A DNA stretch of 64,000 nt from Kiloniellaceae bacterium (GTDB lineage: Bacteria > Pseudomonadota > Alphaproteobacteria > Kiloniellales > J153), in assembly GCA_021776175.1 (NCBI GenBank), contig JAJFGJ010000003.1, positions 144,233 to 208,232 of the forward strand. Direction: 5' to 3'. The translations under genes were made by a program, and so were the position numbers. The notes beneath the pieces are model-generated. The model was not told the origin of the DNA, searched no databases, and saw only the letters and a list, made by a program, of their open reading frames with translations. Shown piece after piece: positions 18,018 through 34,541 of this stretch (within the stretch, counting starts at the first letter, position 1; the number at the start of each line of letters is the position of its first letter).

Positions 18018-18611
18018 ATGGCGGCCTCTAAGGCGGGAACATCCAAGGCGGGAACATCCAAGGCGGACGAGATACTCGATATCGCCGAGAGCCTGGTGCG
18101 GCGTAACGGCTACAACGGTTTCAGCTTCCGCGAAGTCGCGTCGCGGGCGGGGATCAAGAGCGCCAGTGTCCACTATCATTTTCCGGCCAAATCCGATCTG
18201 GGCGTGGCGGTCGCGCGCCGCTACACGGATCGCTTCATGGATGGATTGGGCGACCCCCAGGCTTCGCCGGACCCGTTGACTGCCTATGTCGCCGCTTTTC
18301 GCGCCGGGCTGACCGGGGACGGCCAGATGTGCCTCTGTGGGGTTCTGGGCGCGGAAAGCACGGCGTTGCCGGCGGAGGTCGCGGCGGAGGCCAAGCGATT
18401 CTGCGAACTCAATGCCGCGTGGTTGGAGTGCGCGCTATCGGCGCGCGGCCTGGCATCGGGGGCGCAAGACGCTTCCCTTCGGCGTCAGGCTCTGCTTATT
18501 CTTTCGGTACTGGAAGGCGCCATGATCGTGGCGCGGAATTTAGGCGATCTTACGGTTTTCGATGAGATCGCCGCCGGCCTAACCGAGGCGCGGTACTTGA
18601 GGCGCGCTTAG
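18018..18611 (+). CDS. TetR-family transcriptional regulator
   Basis: N-terminal HTH ILDIAESLVRRNGYNGFSFREVASRAGIKSASVHYHFPAKSDL. Confidence 0.9.
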   Translation: MAASKAGTSKAGTSKADEILDIAESLVRRNGYNGFSFREVASRAGIKSASVHYHFPAKSDLGVAVARRYTDRFMDGLGDPQASPDPLTAYVAAFRAGLTGDGQMCLCGVLGAESTALPAEVAAEAKRFCELNAAWLECALSARGLASGAQDASLRRQALLILSVLEGAMIVARNLGDLTVFDEIAAGLTEARYLRRA

Positions 18612-18630
18612 CTGACAAAGGGAATTCGCG

Positions 18631-19392
18631 ATGACCGTCACCAGTCTGCACGATAGCCGGCGCAACAGCGATCCGTATTGGGATGCGCGGGTCGATCTCG
18701 CTTGCGCCTTTCGCTGGACCGTACGCCTGAACATGCACGAGGGTATCGCCAATCATTTCAGCCTGGCGGTCTCGGACGACGGATCGCGGTTCCTGATGAA
18801 TCCGAACAGCCGCCATTTCTCGCGCATCCGGGCCCGCGATATGCTGCTTCTGGACGCCCATGACCGCGAGACCATGAACCGGCCGGACGCGCCGGACCCG
18901 ACCGCCTGGGACATCCACGGCGCGATCCACCGGCGGGCGCCGCACGCGCGTTGCATCCTGCACGTTCATTCCAAGTATGCCCTGGTTCTGGCCACCCTCA
19001 AGGATCCGGTCATGCCGCCCATCGACCAGAACACCATGCGGTTTTACGACCGGATCGCCTATGACAACGGTTACGACGGCATGGGCCTGGGCGAGGAGGC
19101 GGAGCGCCTGGCGGCCAAGCTGGGCGACAAGACCGTTCTGGTCCTGGGCAATCACGGCGTGCTTTTCGCGAACGCCAGCGTCGCCGCGGCTTTCGACGAG
19201 ATGTACTATTTCGAGCGTGCCTGCGAGACCCTCATAACCGCCTACATGACCGGGCGCGAACTCAGTGTCGCTTCCGATGCCGTGGCACGAAAAACCGCCG
19301 GGCAGTGGTTGGCTTATCCAAGTTTCGCCGGCTCGCATTTCAACGAGCTCAAGGCGATTCTGGACCAAGAGGACCCGGACTACAGGACCTGA
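18631..19392 (+). CDS. Class II aldolase/adducin-family protein
   Basis: ILHVHSKYALVLATL and VLVLGNHGVLF motifs. Typical ~250 aa size. Confidence 0.85.
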   Translation: MTVTSLHDSRRNSDPYWDARVDLACAFRWTVRLNMHEGIANHFSLAVSDDGSRFLMNPNSRHFSRIRARDMLLLDAHDRETMNRPDAPDPTAWDIHGAIHRRAPHARCILHVHSKYALVLATLKDPVMPPIDQNTMRFYDRIAYDNGYDGMGLGEEAERLAAKLGDKTVLVLGNHGVLFANASVAAAFDEMYYFERACETLITAYMTGRELSVASDAVARKTAGQWLAYPSFAGSHFNELKAILDQEDPDYRT

Positions 19393-19415
19393 GGCAGGCC
19401 AGCCCGGCGCCCAAG

Positions 19416-19446
19416 AAAAAAAAGGCCCCGCCTTCCTGGCGGAGCC
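19416..19446 (-). terminator. Intrinsic terminator on the minus strand
   Basis: The minus strand reads ggctccgcc-aggaa-ggcggggcc followed by eight T (complement of 19416-19423). There is no T-run on the plus strand, so it serves a minus-strand transcript. Confidence 0.6.
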
Positions 19447-19761
19447 TCCCCGTGGCCGGATCGTCCGAATACCTTCGAAGACCCGGCGTTCACGGATACT
19501 GAGTGGTTACAAACGTGGCCAGGCGTACCTGCGGCCGTCCGGCACCCCAACCCGCCAGGAACCGAGACCCTCCGTCCGCGCGTCGCGCGTGGCGGGCGAT
19601 CGAACCGCGATAATCGCGGCCGGTCCCATCGTCTTGGCTGGATCGACTTGATGCCGCACGCCGGTAACCTCCCTGTTTCTCGAAGCCGTCACCCGCACCG
19701 GCCATCCTGGCCGGAAGTGGACCGGGTGAGGTCCGAGTAAGCGTCCTATTTCCTTTGGACA
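19416..19761 (-). ncRNA. Candidate ~345-nt structured non-coding (or small-protein) transcript, family unknown
   Basis: Bounded by a CRP-box/-10 promoter architecture upstream and the intrinsic terminator downstream. Several local hairpins are present (ccggcca-gga-tggccgg, ccgcga-tta-tcgcgg). No convincing protein in any frame. No match to tmRNA, RNase P or SRP signature motifs that I can recall. Confidence 0.35.
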
Positions 19762-19767
19762 CCTTTG

Positions 19768-19843
19768 AATTTAGGGATGGTTCGGCGCGGCCAATGTGAC
19801 GGTCATCACTAAACCGTGAAGACCGCGTGTGACGCCTATCACA
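19768..19843 (-). promoter_or_regulatory. Two CRP-type boxes plus a -10 element (class II-like geometry) for a minus-strand promoter
   Basis: TGTGA-cgccta-TCACA at 19828-19843 is perfect. TGTGA-cggtca-TCACT at 19795-19810 has one mismatch. The minus-strand TAAATT hexamer is at 19768-19773. The proximal box centre lies 29.5 nt upstream of the first hexamer base, which places it at -41.5 if the hexamer is -12..-7. Confidence 0.45.
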
Positions 19844-19852
19844 TTTGTGCGC

Positions 19853-20047
19853 TTAAACGCCGGGGAGGTTCGGAATGGAGCTTTTGCCGGCTCGGCGCAC
19901 CACCAGCCACAGGGCGTGAATCACACCAGGCACGAAAAAGAATATGGTCAGAAGGATGTTGAGCCAGAAATGAAGGCCGATGCCGACGGTTAGAAAGGCC
20001 GCCACGGGTGGCAGGAAAATGGCTAAAATAATACGGACGATATTCAT
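19853..20047 (-). CDS. YqaE/Pmp3-family small membrane proteolipid
   Basis: 64 aa with two TM segments. IVRIILAIFLPPVAAFL...NILLTIFFFVPGVIHALW matches the Pmp3/YqaE pattern. Confidence 0.85.
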   Translation of the reverse strand: MNIVRIILAIFLPPVAAFLTVGIGLHFWLNILLTIFFFVPGVIHALWLVVRRAGKSSIPNLPGV

Positions 20048-20120
20048 GCTGTTCTCCCCCAGAACACAGCCGCCGGGTGGCGGACCGATTCGGCGGGCAT
20101 TCTAGCCGCTCTTAGCGCTC

Positions 20121-20151
20121 AACTCCAAGGAAACGGGCTGTTGCCGACCGG
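20121..20151. repeat. Direct repeat copy A (31 bp) flanking the hicAB cassette
   Basis: aactccaaggaaacgggctgttgCcgaccgg is identical to 21083-21113 except for one base. On the minus strand it encodes PVGNSPFPWS-stop, which duplicates the C-terminus of the 21081-22424 gene. Confidence 0.9.
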
Positions 20152-20303
20152 TCGCGGGCGTCTTTTCGGAATGACCGAATCTGCTGTGTCCGGGCGCACA
20201 TGTCGCCGCTCTCGCAGCCGAGCATCGATAACCGCCTCGCGAGACGCCATTCCCACTCATGCCTAGTCCCCGGAGACTCATAGGAAGCTCGCATTGCCCA
20301 GAG

Positions 20304-20358
20304 TATACGCACTTTTGCGAATTTTTTTCTTTGAACTATTCGCAGAAGTGCGTATAAT
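20304..20358 (+). promoter_or_regulatory. hicAB promoter with an embedded 19-bp inverted repeat (candidate HicB operator)
   Basis: TTGAAC (20331-20336), a 16-nt spacer, then TATAAT (20353-20358). The arms tatacgcacttttgcgaat (20304-20322) and attcgcagaagtgcgtata (20338-20356) are reverse complements with 1 mismatch. Confidence 0.55.
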
Positions 20359-20367
20359 AGAGGTCGT

Positions 20368-20577
20368 ATGAAACGCGACCAGTTCTTGTCTCGCCTTCGC
20401 CGTCATGCCCGTAAAAACGGTCTGGCTTTCGGCGTCGTGAAGTCTCGGGGCAAGGGTAGCCACGTCACTGTCACGCTCGGTGCGCGACGCACCATCGTGA
20501 AGGGTGGCGAGCTGAAGCCTGGATATATCGCGTTAATCGTGCGCCAACTCGGTCTGCCGGGCGGCGTTTTAAAATGA
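20368..20577 (+). CDS. hicA: HicA-family toxin (mRNA interferase)
   Basis: 69 aa with a KGSH motif (SRGKGSHVTVTL) and a ...IVRQLGL C-terminal pattern. It sits upstream of a HicB-like gene. Confidence 0.8.
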   Translation: MKRDQFLSRLRRHARKNGLAFGVVKSRGKGSHVTVTLGARRTIVKGGELKPGYIALIVRQLGLPGGVLK

Positions 20578-20632
20578 ACCGTGACTGGCCCTACCCCACT
20601 TAAGGGCCGTGCCGCTCAAGGAGGAGGGCATC

Positions 20633-21073
20633 ATGCGCTTGATATATCCGGTCGATATCGCCGAACACGGCGGCCCACCAGACGAGGCCGGTTTCGCCGT
20701 GACCTTCCCGGATTTGCCCGAGGCAGTGACTTGGGGCGAGACCCTGGCCGAGGCCTTGGCCAATGCCACCGATTGCCTGGAGGAAGCCCTGGCCGCCCGC
20801 ATCCTGGCGCGCGAGGCACTGCCCGCGCCTTCGGCCGCTCGCGGCCGGCCGTGTGTGGCGCCCGGCAGTCTTATCGGCGCAAAGGCCGCGCTCTATCTGG
20901 CGCTGCGCGACTCCGGCACCACCCCGGCGAAGCTCGCCCGGCGCTTGGGCACGCAGCCTTCGGCCGTGACTCGGCTGCTCGACCCCGCGCACGCCAGTAA
21001 GCCGGCGCGGATCGACGACGCGCTGAACGCGCTAGGTAAGCGCCTTGTCGTCGCGCTCGAACCCGCCGCTTAA
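20633..21073 (+). CDS. hicB: HicB-family antitoxin with a C-terminal HTH
   Basis: MRLIYPVDIAEH...GFAVTFPDLPEAVTWGETLAEALANATDCLEEAL is a HicB N-terminal fold pattern. The C-terminal TPAKLARRLGTQPSAVTRLLDP is an HTH. The ATG at 20633 follows an aggagg SD. Confidence 0.8.
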   Translation: MRLIYPVDIAEHGGPPDEAGFAVTFPDLPEAVTWGETLAEALANATDCLEEALAARILAREALPAPSAARGRPCVAPGSLIGAKAALYLALRDSGTTPAKLARRLGTQPSAVTRLLDPAHASKPARIDDALNALGKRLVVALEPAA

Positions 21074-21080
21074 GCGCCAT

Positions 21081-22424
21081 CTAACTCCAAGGAAACGGGC
21101 TGTTGCTGACCGGGTGCAGCTTGCCCTCGGCGAAACGTGAGAAGCGGAACGGAGTGAGCAGGCGGCTTTCCTCGCCCAAGAGTTCATCGGCGATCAGCTT
21201 GCCGACGCCGATCATCTTGTAGCCGTGGTTCGAGTCCGCGATGAAGGTGACGTTCTCGCGGAAGCGGTCGAAGACCGGAAAGGAATCCGGCGTGAAGCAG
21301 CCCAGGCCGCCCGAGGGTTCGTTCTTGTAATACTTGATCTGGCCCTCGAAACGTTTTTGACAGAAGGCCAGGGCCGAACACCACATGTGGGCGAAATTGT
21401 CGTCCACGATGAACTCCGGCGATTCCGGGCCGTAGGGGTCGAGCGCGACCTTATCGACCGGGGTCTCGACCTTGTAGGGCATGGCGCCGCCCTGAATACC
21501 GCCGAAGTTGAAGTCTGGCTTGTAGTAGATGCCCCACATTTCCTCGGTGATGAGCGAGCCGTCGACGTCCGAATACAGCGGCTCGTCGGTATCGACATGG
21601 ATGACCGGCGGCATCTTGCCGTCGTTGGTCTTTTGCAACTCCGGGTCGACGCCCAGGGTCCCTTCCTCCAGGCACCAGTAGCGCCAGGTATCGATCCCTT
21701 CGTGCACTTTGCCGTCGGGGCCCTTGATCGAGACTGTCTTGGGCAGTTCCAGCATGTCCCAGATTTTACTGGCCCAGGGGCCGGCGGCGACCACGACCTG
21801 CTCGCATTCGATGGCGCCCTTATCGGTCTCCACCGCGGTCACGGCGGCGGAGCCATGGCCGGCGCGAAAGCCGGTCACGGTGATACCCGAAAGGATGCGC
21901 ACGCCCAGATTTTCCGCCTTGGTCGCCAGGCCGTAGATGGCCGCCGTGTTGTTGGCGTAGCCGCCTTTCTTTTCATGCAGGACCGAGGTGATGCCCTTGG
22001 CCCGCCAATCGCTGAACAGGCCCTTCATGTAGGCCATGGACTGGGCTTCGCCCTCGATGAAGGCCGACTCGTAGCCGATGTCCTGCTGTTGGGCGTGAAT
22101 GCTGGCGATATCCGCGCGCATGGATTCGGGCGAGATCTGCATATAGCCCACCGGATGATAGCTGAAAGCCTTGGGATCGCTCTCCCAGACCTCGACGCTT
22201 TGCGCCATCAACTCGCGCATGGCCGGTTGGAAATAGTTGTTACGCACCACGCCGCAGGCGATGCCGCTGGCGCCGGCGGCGATGCCGGTCTTGTCGATTA
22301 CCAGAATGTCCCCGCCGCCGCCCTTTCCTTGGGCTTCCAGCTTTTCCGCCAAGTGCCAGGCGGTCGAGAGGCCATGAATGCCGGCCCCGATAATGACGGT
22401 TTTTACGTGGGTCGGCATGGCCAT
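21081..22424 (-). CDS. FAD-dependent oxidoreductase (DAO/sarcosine-oxidase-beta-like family)
   Basis: VKTVIIGAGIHGLSTAWHLA dinucleotide-binding motif. About 447 aa. I prefer the start at MAMPTH (22424), preceded by aggaga. Confidence 0.85.
   Translation of the reverse strand: MAMPTHVKTVIIGAGIHGLSTAWHLAEKLEAQGKGGGGDILVIDKTGIAAGASGIACGVVRNNYFQPAMRELMAQSVEVWESDPKAFSYHPVGYMQISPESMRADIASIHAQQQDIGYESAFIEGEAQSMAYMKGLFSDWRAKGITSVLHEKKGGYANNTAAIYGLATKAENLGVRILSGITVTGFRAGHGSAAVTAVETDKGAIECEQVVVAAGPWASKIWDMLELPKTVSIKGPDGKVHEGIDTWRYWCLEEGTLGVDPELQKTNDGKMPPVIHVDTDEPLYSDVDGSLITEEMWGIYYKPDFNFGGIQGGAMPYKVETPVDKVALDPYGPESPEFIVDDNFAHMWCSALAFCQKRFEGQIKYYKNEPSGGLGCFTPDSFPVFDRFRENVTFIADSNHGYKMIGVGKLIADELLGEESRLLTPFRFSRFAEGKLHPVSNSPFPWS
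21083..21113. repeat. Direct repeat copy B (31 bp); this is the authentic 3' end of the FAD oxidoreductase gene
   Basis: aactccaaggaaacgggctgttgTtgaccgg encodes ...PVSNSPFPWS-stop of the 21081-22424 CDS. Confidence 0.9.
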
Positions 22425-22581
22425 GGTCGGTCTCCTGGAGGCGTGGGGGTGGCGGATACGATAGGGGCGGCGCATGCTCCTTCTTGGCCCCCACCCGACC
22501 CCCTCTGGCGGCGATTCGACAACTCATGGCGGCTGGCGGTACAAAGCGTTTCATCACCCCTGGCGAAGAGGATTAGAGCTC

Positions 22582-28061: not shown

Positions 28062-28940
28062 TTAAATCATGTCAACGTCTCGCTCTGAGCGGGTACGAAG
28101 GTCATCAATATATGCGAAGCTCCAAATATCGAAATTCGGATTGCCGCCTACATCCCTTGTGGTCTTGTGCCGCAGGCTAGCAACCTGCCGCGCATATGGA
28201 GCAAGCTCAATACGATGAGGCCGCGTCATTTGTCGCATTCTAAAACCCCACGATATAGTGTAGGCAATTAAATCTGCAATTTGAACACCAGTCGTGAGAT
28301 CACTATGAACAAATAATGGCTCTGGAATTATTAAACCTGCTCGAAGTTTCCCGATCGCTGTATTTTTGAAATATTTATGCGCTTGTTCGACCAGAATATG
28401 ACTTCTCGATTTTTCAAGTTCATCAAAAACTATGATTCCACGTTCGTCATATTTCCAATCATCCAAAAAATAGAAAAACCGCTCGAATAGATATCCATAG
28501 TCCTTTCTTAGGCCGCCTGACTCTGTTCGGATAGCATCTCGGTCAACGATGCTAGCTAGCGCCCTACAACGAAAGCGCGCACAAATATCGAAAACATCCT
28601 GTACATAGGCGAGTTTCGCCAATGCCAAGGCTTTAATCCGGGAAACATCCGCTTGCGCACCGTTGTCCAGCGCTTCTTTCGCAAGCTGTGGAATCATATC
28701 ATCTTGAATAGGTACATTAAGATCGGCATGCCTGAAGACTTTTGTTTTTAGTAGCTTCTTTCCTTTTAATTCGGCGCTACCAGCACTGTAACGTCGACCG
28801 AAACGTAATAATTCGGCCGCGTGAATTTCTTTGATAATATTCCAAAGATCACGATCTTGTATGGCAACTCCTGCTAGAACCTCATAAGGAGCTTCTTTGC
28901 GGTCGTGTCCACTTTCATCAATGAATAGCAGCCAAGCCAT
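28062..28940 (-). CDS. DUF3800-like protein (function unknown) in a low-GC islet
   Basis: N-terminal MAWLLFIDESGHD matches the hallmark xxFIDESG start of DUF3800 as I recall it. The later QIADLIAY motif is also typical. Composition is markedly AT-richer than the flanks. Confidence 0.72.
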   Translation of the reverse strand: MAWLLFIDESGHDRKEAPYEVLAGVAIQDRDLWNIIKEIHAAELLRFGRRYSAGSAELKGKKLLKTKVFRHADLNVPIQDDMIPQLAKEALDNGAQADVSRIKALALAKLAYVQDVFDICARFRCRALASIVDRDAIRTESGGLRKDYGYLFERFFYFLDDWKYDERGIIVFDELEKSRSHILVEQAHKYFKNTAIGKLRAGLIIPEPLFVHSDLTTGVQIADLIAYTISWGFRMRQMTRPHRIELAPYARQVASLRHKTTRDVGGNPNFDIWSFAYIDDLRTRSERDVDMI

Positions 28941-33371: not shown

Positions 33372-34541
33372 ATGACTCAACTCAAACGAATCTTTCACAC
33401 GACGGCTTTGGCGGCTTTCGCCGCCATGTTGGCCGGCCTGTTGTCCGGGGAAGCACGCGCCGGACAAGAAAGTTCGTGGACCTTGGAGAGCCGGTCCGGT
33501 CAAGTGAACTTGGTGAAAACCGGCATGGTCCCGATCTCTCTCTCGACAGGCGACGTTTTCGCGGACGGCGATTGGATCGAAACGGGCCCGGACGGCCGGG
33601 CCATGTTGAAGCGTGGGGAAGAGACGATTGTTGTCGCGCCCAACAGCCGAATCGGGTTGCCTAAAAGTAACGATGGGCCGTATGCCACGCGCATCTTGCA
33701 AACCCTCGGCACGATCCTGCTCACGGTGGAAAAAAAGGCCGCGCAGCATTTCGAGATCGAGACGCCTTACCTTACCGCCGTTGTGAAGGGCACGACCTTT
33801 ACCGTCGGTATCCAGGACGGCCGCGCGGTGGTTCATGTCGTGGAGGGCTTGGTTGAGGTCAATAACCTGTCCAGCGGCCGCAGCAGCCTGATCCGTCCCG
33901 GACAGACTGGATCCGTCATTCGTGGCGGCAGCGGCAATATCGAGATCGATGTTGGCGGCGCAAACGGCACGCCAGCCAGTGCGGCGGCCACGCAGGCACC
34001 GGGCGCGAGTCAGGCGACGGCCCCAGTCGCGAGCCAGGCCTCGCCGGTCGCCGTCGCGGCGGTATCGAATGGCAAGTCGCGCAAGGTTAGAATCGCGCGG
34101 GCTCTTGGCCCCACGACCCTCGACCTGAGCAAGTCGACCAAGGGCTTGGTGCGTGCCGCCCAAGGGGGGCAAGGCAAGGCTCTGGGTAAGGGGCATTTGG
34201 CCGGCAAGCAAGCCACCGCCTCGGATGTTCGAAGCAACGGTCTAGCTTTAGGCAAGACCGCCGCCGCCTCGGGTGCCCGGGGCAGCGCCGGGAACAACGG
34301 CCTCGCTTTAGGCAAGACCGCCGCCGCCTCTAGAGATCTAAGCAGCGCCGGGAACAACGGCCTCGCTTTAGGCAAGACCGCCGCCGCCTCTAGGGCTCTG
34401 AGAAGCGCCGGGAACAACGGCCTAGCGCATGGCAACAGCGCAATCGCCAAACTGCAGGCCTCCGTGGATCATGGCCACGGTGCGGGCGACAACCCGCGCG
34501 CCAATCCGGTTAAAGGCCATGGCAATGGCAATAGTAACTAA
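33372..34541 (+). CDS. Secreted FecR-domain protein with C-terminal Ala/Gly-rich 20-aa tandem repeats
   Basis: Signal peptide ...LLSGEARAGQ. FecR-type core GDWIETGPDGRAMLKRGEETIVVAPNSRIGL...FEIETPYLTAVVKGTTFTV...VHVVEGLVEV. Repeats follow the pattern NNGLALGKTAAASxxLxSAG. Confidence 0.8.
   Translation: MTQLKRIFHTTALAAFAAMLAGLLSGEARAGQESSWTLESRSGQVNLVKTGMVPISLSTGDVFADGDWIETGPDGRAMLKRGEETIVVAPNSRIGLPKSNDGPYATRILQTLGTILLTVEKKAAQHFEIETPYLTAVVKGTTFTVGIQDGRAVVHVVEGLVEVNNLSSGRSSLIRPGQTGSVIRGGSGNIEIDVGGANGTPASAAATQAPGASQATAPVASQASPVAVAAVSNGKSRKVRIARALGPTTLDLSKSTKGLVRAAQGGQGKALGKGHLAGKQATASDVRSNGLALGKTAAASGARGSAGNNGLALGKTAAASRDLSSAGNNGLALGKTAAASRALRSAGNNGLAHGNSAIAKLQASVDHGHGAGDNPRANPVKGHGNGNSN
34235..34435 (+). 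repeat. 60-bp tandem repeat, about 3.3 copies, in frame within the FecR-domain gene
   Basis: Units at 34235-34294, 34295-34354 and 34355-34414, plus a partial fourth. Units 2 and 3 differ at only about 5 positions. Confidence 0.9.

Follow-up and report, generated by a model that had tools for sequence, protein, structure and literature searches.

The closest described parallels to the locus analysed here are insertions of restriction-modification units, which show long target duplications of variable length without mobility genes, the repeats being longer than 30 bp and single in the genome that carries the empty site (PMC2853133). In Haemophilus influenzae cases, 15 or 2 bp of the 46-bp repeat fall within a gene's 3' end (PMC2853133); the mechanism of such insertions is unknown, and amplification through the repeats has been documented (PMC2853133; review PMC3874152). 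Furuta, Abe and Kobayashi (2010) recognise these events by an insert shorter than 20 kb without a mobility gene, and by a repeat that is longer than 30 bp, is single in the empty genome, and is not a multi-copy family, a transfer RNA (tRNA) or an attachment (att) site. Here, we describe a hicAB type II toxin-antitoxin cassette, bracketed by a 31-bp direct repeat of a neighbouring oxidoreductase gene's end, in a 64,000-nucleotide stretch of a Kiloniellaceae bacterium (GCA_021776175.1, contig JAJFGJ010000003.1), referred to below as the window.

Toxin-antitoxin pairs are among the most horizontally mobile prokaryotic genes. A large comparative study stresses this mobility, offers no mechanism for it and makes no mention of repeats, integrases or transposases (PMC2701414). 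In the searchable literature we found no systematic report of a long-target-duplication route for type II pairs, only one descriptive case, in Microcystis aeruginosa PCC 7806, where a ParE/ParD-like module stands between two identical 152-bp direct repeats (PMC7935541). That pair is likewise type II, next to a host stop codon and fenced by long direct repeats, but no empty site or repeat origin has been established for it, its direct repeats contain internal inverted repeats, and it belongs to another toxin-antitoxin family.

By analogy, the hicAB insertion appears closest to the known kind of insertion with long target duplication, here with a cargo that cannot cut DNA. In common with the restriction-modification cases, it involves a small addiction-type unit without a mobility gene and locus-specific repeats of variable length, which are longer than transposon duplications and single in an insert-free relative. 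Tandem amplification through the repeats, known for restriction-modification units, has a possible HicAB counterpart at one surveyed locus (L077). Unlike the published cases, which are strain polymorphisms, the hicAB insertion is old and partly decayed, and the self-inflicted DNA breakage proposed for restriction-modification units cannot apply to a type II toxin-antitoxin cargo. All four features listed by Furuta et al. are nevertheless found: the insert between the repeats is 931 bp long and carries only hicA and hicB, with no mobility gene; the repeat aligns once with an insert-free relative (L005); it is no multi-copy family, tRNA or att site, having two copies in 64 kb and one in each of 82 other loci, with no tRNA nearby; and it exceeds 30 bp, only marginally in the window (31 bp), orthologous repeats measuring 21 bp (L004) and 11 bp (L007).

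Our best explanation overall, to which we assign a probability of roughly 0.55, is that at least three Kiloniellaceae-like lineages descend from an ancestor in which host recombination inserted hicAB with a long target duplication. The locus offers a clean, dated, empty-site example of toxin-antitoxin insertion with long target duplication and no recombinase. It extends the restriction-modification route to a toxin-antitoxin cassette, which argues that the route is independent of DNA cleavage by the cargo.

A duplicated gene end around hicAB

The features that define the site are the following.

19853-20047, minus strand: Pmp3/YqaE-family small membrane protein gene, 64 aa, the native downstream neighbour of the oxidoreductase gene
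20105-20120, no strand assigned: native oxidoreductase-downstream DNA beside copy A, resembling the hicB stop region (13/14 with one gap)
20121-20151, minus strand: copy A of the direct repeat, which duplicates the oxidoreductase 3' end as an orphan (PVGNSPFPWS), with a TGA stop at 20119-20121
20368-20577, plus strand: hicA toxin gene, 69 aa, with an invariant RGKGSH motif
20633-21073, plus strand: hicB antitoxin gene, 146 aa, with its stop at 21071-21073
21074-21080, no strand assigned: 7-nt tail between the hicB and oxidoreductase stops, which resembles native downstream DNA of another allele
21083-21113, minus strand: copy B of the direct repeat, the genuine 3' end of the oxidoreductase gene (its last 10 codons, PVSNSPFPWS), with a TAG stop at 21081-21083
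21081-22424, minus strand: FAD-dependent DAO-family oxidoreductase gene, 447 aa (Pfam DAO, E=5e-35), the target gene whose 3' end is duplicated

The 31-mer AACTCCAAGGAAACGGGCTGTTGC(C/T)GACCGG is present at 20121-20151 and 21083-21113, the two copies being identical at 30 of 31 bases. A pattern search allowing up to three mismatches found it only at those two sites in the 64-kb window, with 0 expected from 100 shuffles, and the pair is the sole dispersed exact repeat of 20 bases or more within the 64 kb. In a gapped alignment 44 of 50 columns match; beyond the 31-mer, the similarity extends on one side only (20105-20120 against 21065-21082). On sequence grounds, we read the likeness of 20105-20120 to the hicB stop region as microhomology between the cassette end and the target. 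Copy A closes a 45-aa orphan open reading frame (ORF) and lies 73 nt upstream of the Pmp3 start codon. The 160 nt adjoining copy A show no resemblance to the oxidoreductase gene beyond chance (local alignment score 18, shuffle mean 17.6), and a longer, decayed duplication upstream of copy A was rejected because the similarity there is no better than that of shuffles.

Given that the sequences come from metagenomes, one might suspect chance similarity or an assembly artefact behind the repeat. However, zero chance matches are expected, an independent Logan assembly is 100% identical over 18516-21492, orthologous repeats exist in L004, and one repeat copy is the end of a coding gene, so that this suspicion is effectively refuted and carries a negligible probability. 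A 914-bp Logan contig (20210-21123) considered as a sign of excision was dropped: its ends do not match the repeat positions and it is therefore uninformative on excision.

Three informative contigs were found through close homologues of the oxidoreductase and of HicB, namely L005 (GCA_021776095.1), L004 (a Kiloniellaceae metagenome-assembled genome, MAG) and L007 (a JGI metagenome contig), with oxidoreductases 86%, 90% and 91% identical to that of the window, respectively. L005 has the same neighbours on both sides, no hicAB, one repeat copy and 71 bp from the oxidoreductase to Pmp3, while L004 and L007 carry the same cassette at the same site; the oxidoreductase C-terminus encoded by copy B is kept in all three. 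From copy A to the Pmp3 start codon, the window, L004, L005 and L007 align without indels. Therefore, copy A and the DNA that follows it are the native gene end and intergenic DNA, and the stretch ccgctcttagcgc is native intergenic DNA rather than a hicB remnant. Neither a second gene-end copy within 2.5 kb nor hicAB was present in 80 further oxidoreductase loci (69-81% identical) and L006, which brings the count of second copies within that distance to 0 of 82 other oxidoreductase loci overall. A metagenome scan for closer relatives of the site gave none above 81% identity among the matches listed, and L007 was not among these. Since the repeat is single in L005 and in 81 further loci, it is a target duplication that accompanied the insertion and not a repetitive extragenic palindromic (REP) element. 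Both the duplication and the empty site are thus observed directly.

Most of what an earlier note had proposed from the window sequence alone stands after this comparison. The note had described the 31-bp repeat, with 30 of 31 bases shared by two sites that are indeed the only ones in the window, and had taken copy B for the true gene end and copy A for an orphan, as the chance-level alignment upstream of copy A bears out. The promoter-hicA-hicB unit that it placed between the copies is there, with the promoter at 20331-20358 and both genes within the 931 bp, and the additional similarity that it saw just outside the repeats is real. Its suggestion of a target-duplicating insertion at a gene terminus agrees with L005, where the copy is single and 71 bp separate the oxidoreductase gene from Pmp3. 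Two outcomes that the note had named as fatal to its proposal did not occur, in that relatives without hicAB never carry two copies (81 loci and L005), and a REP-like element is ruled out by a copy number of two in 64 kb.

The insertion is old. Synonymous divergence (dS) among the three occupied genomes, which are about equidistant, is 0.43-0.57 for hicB, 0.48-0.57 for the oxidoreductase and 0.27-0.59 for Pmp3. Because the hicB value equals that of the host genes at a shared site, the cassette is as old as the split of the three lineages, and the sequences point to an insertion that was inherited vertically and is not fresh. With ratios of nonsynonymous to synonymous divergence (dN/dS) of 0.11 for hicA and 0.09-0.18 across hicA and hicB, the cassette has been under purifying selection. 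In L004 (7790-8030), hicA is a pseudogene in which the Lys codon of RGKGSH has become TAG, and hicB is intact, so that the antitoxin has outlived the toxin. Three independent insertions were rejected, as L007 has its A-side junction in common with L004 and its B-side junction in common with the window, and hicB dS equals host dS.

Since the insertion is ancient, the near-identity of the repeat itself needs explaining. By lineage, the repeat measures 31 bp in the window (30/31), 21 bp in L004 (21/21) and 11 bp in L007, and between lineages the orphan copy is 67-76% identical, which equals the intergenic divergence rate. At an expected divergence of about 0.2-0.25 per site, the probability of at most one difference in 31 positions is 0.0015-0.009, and that of none in 21 is similar. 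Moreover, a window-specific TTT codon is found in both window copies and an L004-specific TCT-TAG in both L004 copies. This improbable identity and the lineage-specific codons together indicate that, in two of the three lineages, the copies were either regenerated or made alike again through gene conversion or unequal exchange. The excess identity is a direct observation; what it would imply for the window is gene conversion or constraint, and, judged from the alignments, the repeat is probably younger than the cassette. In L004, conversion seems to have run from A to B, as the L004 oxidoreductase ends in TCT-TAG like the orphan copies of L004 and L007, its stop overlapping the hicB stop and its ..PFPWS end unchanged. 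Towards the promoter, the homology of the window with L004 or L007 stops near 20308 and returns at 20137, leaving about 170 nt in the window against 15 in L004; the simplest reading would be a deletion in L004 and L007 in which their orphan copy also lost its first 10-14 nt.

Flanking repeats at other HicAB loci

The footprint is not confined to this site. An alignment of HicB searched against GTDB species representatives gave 80 loci, and those with hicA upstream were scored by the best ungapped direct repeat shared by the 400 nt preceding hicA and the region from -25 to +200 around the hicB stop. A score of at least 21 was reached in 10 of 48 HicAB clusters and in 2 of 614 geometry-matched controls (Fisher p=9e-11). 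A conservative count still gave 7 of 46 clusters (p=1.7e-7) after loci with local short-repeat families (L052, L043), a repeat-rich spacer (L026), a second HicB-like gene upstream (L028, L039) or a tandem array (L077) had been set aside. The recurrence within the family is thus observed directly, with the footprint still visible at about one in five loci of those surveyed. The repeats are mutually unrelated, the shortest measuring 21 bp and the longest at least 239 bp, and no termini are common to the cassettes.

Two of these loci show what the duplications look like at greater length. At L008 and L009, hicAB follows a homoserine dehydrogenase gene and an orphan copy of the gene's end stands after hicB; the L008 orphan matches gene positions -231 to -200 at 31 of 32 nt and the last 70 nt of the gene at 67 of 70, so the duplication was at least 239 bp long and later suffered a 139-bp internal deletion. 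The L008 relatives L173 and L174 are empty, with one copy and no cassette. At L056, about 120 bp of intergenic DNA is duplicated between two UDP-glucose dehydrogenase genes.

Several loci carry more complex arrangements. In L172 (3793-4084, compared with L008 4663-5561), a different hicA-type gene with its own palindromic operator stands behind the same stop codon, and the DNA behind the homoserine dehydrogenase stop looks like an insertion hot spot for toxin-antitoxin cassettes. A Dehalococcoidia MAG (L077, 3083-4660) has a tandem hicB-hicA-hicB arrangement and, beginning within the hicB 3' end, a repeat of at least 235 bp, a possible case of amplification through flanking repeats. In L028 (3303-4465) and L039 (3262-4477), a second, distinct HicB-like gene immediately precedes hicAB, and 29-45 bp from its 3' part recur just behind the hicB stop. 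Some of the survey repeats are therefore ambiguous and not clean target duplications.

It is tempting to go further and to regard HicAB, and perhaps type II pairs generally, as recombinase-free mobile units that settle behind housekeeping stop codons through host-mediated target duplication, a generalisation that we put forward as doubtful. If it were true, the repeats would be kept homogeneous and the unit would be able to amplify, loop out and re-insert, in a virus-like life cycle so far postulated only for restriction-modification systems.

Routes of insertion

Some 55 large ORFs spread over the window, examined by Pfam scan or synteny, include no integrase and no transposase, as the earlier note had stated, and none was found in the syntenic parts of L004, L005 and L007. 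The scanned ORFs are ordinary chromosomal genes, among them rpsF, rplI, and genes for a beta-ketoacyl synthase, YceG, urocanase, sarcosine-oxidase-like proteins, histidine kinases and a sigma factor. The insertion site has no tRNA, the only one in the window lying 37 kb away. The cassette does not have the marks of a DNA transposon or miniature inverted-repeat transposable element, as it has no terminal inverted repeats (the best inverted match of its ends is 9 nt, which 10% of shuffles attain) and its duplication, at least 31 bp here, varies between loci. Nor does it resemble an integron gene cassette, given that no intI is present in the ORFs scanned and that the 7 nt between the hicB and oxidoreductase stops leave no room for an attC-like site. 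Among phages, plasmids and viral contigs the cassette has no close relative, the nearest HicB being less than 48% identical. We therefore consider it likely that the cassette was inserted with target duplication and without a recombinase.

According to our preferred reading, the 0.93-kb hicAB addiction cassette would have been inserted between the oxidoreductase stop codon and the Pmp3 gene, and the joining would have been the work of host recombination, not of an integrase or transposase encoded by the element or nearby. The duplicated target would comprise at least the last 31 bp of the oxidoreductase gene and a few bases past its stop, such that copy B would keep the oxidoreductase reading frame and copy A would retain the prior upstream DNA of Pmp3. 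The incoming DNA may have been a related-donor fragment on which hicAB already adjoined an oxidoreductase 3' end, recombining through short one-sided homology, either in a Campbell-type single crossover or by one homologous end joined to an illegitimate one; in both, the homologous stretch is necessarily duplicated. Thereafter, the cassette would have been retained by purifying selection, for addiction or function, with the orphan copy trimmed in the sister lineages and the window copies kept alike by gene conversion or unequal exchange. We favour one-sided homology because staggered nicks do not easily yield duplications of 120 to at least 239 bp, because the gene-side tail looks allelic, and because the duplicated stretch always includes the intact gene's end. 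The insertion position lies within about 10 nt of a stop codon. As a specific mechanism, it is nonetheless a tentative choice, which we place somewhat short of even odds.

The allelic look of the tail comes from the 13 nt that follow CCTTGG on each side of the cassette, which compare as follows.

Window B side AGTTAGATGGCGC against L005 native AGTTAGACGGCAC: 11/13
L007 B side AGTTGAGCGGTCT against window A side (native) AGTTGAGCGCTAA: 10/13
Window B side against window A side: 5/13
L007 B side against L007 A side: 4/13

If the tails of each genome had been identical in the ancestor of the clade, the probability of such differences would be 0.018 for the window and 0.004 for L007. The gene-side copy looks as if it ran into the native downstream DNA of a different allele, as expected of a related-donor fragment after a single crossover in the shared coding stretch. 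That the hicB stop region was itself derived from the target was considered and rejected, since the ...E-x-A-A-stop end of HicB is conserved throughout the family.

With the gene end duplicated, the upstream gene remains complete and the downstream gene keeps the DNA in front of it, which shows how such an insertion can be harmless. In this regard, a motif consisting of CGTT(T/C)CCTTGG, 20 variable nt and TAG(A/T)(A/C)TGCC is conserved at a fixed distance in the three orphan copies and in the empty site, and it contains a candidate promoter.

20099-20128, minus strand: inferred Pmp3 promoter TTGGAG-N18-TAGAAT, its -35 box inside copy A, corresponding to the last oxidoreductase codons in the empty site

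In the alignment, TTG...TAnnnT and its spacing are kept in all four genomes, and copy A probably supplies the -35 box of the Pmp3 promoter. If so, only by duplicating the gene end could DNA be inserted at this position without harm to either gene. Rfam, tRNA and RNA-fold searches between copy A and Pmp3 gave nothing (fold z-score -0.19), the Rfam matches being operator hairpin artefacts only.

Several points weigh against host recombination with a long target duplication as the full account. No mechanistic step was observed, and we infer the enzymology from sequence comparison, as we do the origin in a donor allele and the part played by copy A in the Pmp3 promoter. All sequences compared derive from MAGs or metagenomes, and L005 is the only syntenic empty site and an outgroup, so that its emptiness could be a secondary loss through the repeats. 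An ungapped 31 bp is at the lower limit both of the published criterion of more than 30 bp and of efficient RecA recombination. A simple old duplication leaves the 30/31 identity unexplained, and gene conversion is a second assumption. The sharing of junctions is in conflict (the window with L007 on the B side, L004 with L007 on the A side) and calls for later indels or recombination between occupied alleles. The donor-allele argument is a hint drawn from 13-nt tails in two genomes, which recombination between occupied alleles could blur, and a sigma-70 consensus scan places the proposed Pmp3 promoter below threshold.

Among the alternatives, duplication could have arisen in situ, through a staggered break or template switch at which a hicAB fragment was end-joined at microhomology and fill-in copied the recipient sequence. 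This would suit the variable repeat lengths, the cassettes without conserved ends and the 13/14 microhomology of the hicB end to the native sequence flanking copy A, and DNA breakage has been proposed as the common property behind restriction-modification insertions of this kind. However, HicA is an RNase-type toxin and gives no DNA break, and the duplications of at least 239 bp at L008 and about 120 bp at L056 are long for staggered nicks. Moreover, the tails past the stop differ within a genome (4-5/13 matching) and yet resemble the native tails of other genomes, which is unexpected if both were copied from one molecule, and we regard an in-situ origin as unlikely. The repeats might also be attL and attR sites of a trans-acting or lost integrase, with hicAB as a remnant of a larger island, similar to a cis-mobilisable element (CIME). 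Integrases frequently target gene 3' ends and restore them on integration, and integrase-less, att-flanked elements are known in the cis-mobilisable derivatives of integrative and conjugative elements that sit in gene 3' ends, for example in fda of Streptococcus thermophilus. These derivatives are likewise small, recombinase-free and bracketed by direct repeats that include a gene 3' end, and one HicB homologue (L011) does adjoin a phage-type integrase. In contrast to att repeats, which share one core, the hicAB repeats differ in sequence at every locus and in length from 21 to at least 239 bp, and the cassettes have neither conserved termini nor a shared core. Together with the missing integrase or island in the window and its syntenic relatives, the 0 of 82 other oxidoreductase loci with a second copy and the want of close relatives on phages, plasmids and viral contigs, this makes site-specific integration decidedly improbable; a trans-acting integrase is the least supported reading of mechanism, and the site-specific, att-like structure entertained in the earlier note finds no support.

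The note had also raised a former tandem array, and the locus might be the remnant of a tandem amplification or of a larger insert reduced by deletion, in which case the repeat would reflect amplification and not insertion. The tandem array with its repeat of at least 235 bp in L077, the documented amplification of restriction-modification units through flanking repeats, and a 152-nt spacer that could be left over from a larger insert are all compatible with this. Yet no hicA or hicB fragment lies outside the cassette, and collinearity with the empty site runs from copy A up to the Pmp3 start with no indels, which speaks against an array having stood here. Amplification, moreover, presupposes repeats and leaves their origin unexplained. 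A collapsed array is thus very improbable, and insertion by host recombination with a long target duplication is the reading that we retain. Its practical value is modest, the locus providing a defined substrate on which one-sided homology and end-joining models can be set against each other.

The cassette and its surroundings

The remaining features of the insert lie upstream of hicA.

20152-20303, no strand assigned: 152-nt spacer without counterpart in the orthologous cassettes of L004 and L007
20304-20322 and 20338-20356, plus strand: 19-nt inverted repeat over the hicAB promoter, each arm with a CGCA-N4-TGCG palindrome
20331-20358, plus strand: hicAB promoter, sigma-70-like TTGAAC-16-TATAAT, with the -35 box at 20331-20336 and the -10 box at 20353-20358

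The spacer has no match in ~190 fetched loci nor in plasmids, and its longest ORF, compared with 1.8 billion proteins, gave one match, which we judged spurious. The CGCA-N4-TGCG palindromes are presumed to be HicB operators. The promoter and operator DNA is conserved in L004, L007 and L015, and a similar palindrome is found upstream of hicA in L008. The two genes are small, adjacent and co-oriented, with hicA first and a single, putatively autoregulated promoter under the inverted repeat.

The HicA protein matches Pfam PF07927 (HicA_toxin) with E=1.4e-5 and 25.6 bits, just below the 27-bit cut-off, and has no NCBIfam match; the best PDB match of its family profile is HicA 5yrz_B (E=0.023), and the RGKGSH motif with the GSH histidine is invariant among 13 homologues. 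HicB scores 29.6 bits against Pfam PF15919 (HicB_lk_antitox; cut-off 27), with PF15970 precomputed for the same protein, and Escherichia coli HicB 6hpb_B matches its residues 15-140 with E=3.5e-16. The module resembles E. coli HicAB (PDB 6hpb) and other chromosomal HicAB pairs in its hicA-hicB order, in HicB homology over nearly the full length, in the GSH histidine motif of HicA and in a promoter overlapped by palindromic operators. This likeness concerns the identity of the cargo, not its route of arrival, and goes with low identity to characterised members and a HicA just under the Pfam cut-off.

On the other side, hicB and the oxidoreductase gene are convergent, their stops 7 nt apart. The oxidoreductase ORF spans 21081-22475 on the minus strand and ends in ...PVSNSPFPWS-TAG; its start is probably at 22424, because homologues are 447 aa long.

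Four further observations concern the rest of the window. A 460-nt gene-free gap (19393-19852) separates the convergent aldolase and Pmp3 genes, its sole match being a sub-threshold one to the Rfam DUF3800-I RNA (23.7 bits against 44.2, E=0.9). A perfect 15-bp tandem repeat of 2.5 copies (18030-18066) encodes a repeated AGTSK at the N-terminus of a TetR-like ORF (18018-18611), and a 60-bp tandem repeat of 3.2 copies with 89% match (34235-34423) lies within a FecR-domain ORF (33372-34541). Finally, a DUF3800 ORF on the minus strand (28062-28940), which has an orthologue in L004, shows a GC content at third codon positions of 0.37, compared with ~0.75-0.8 in its neighbours, and is therefore probably of foreign origin.

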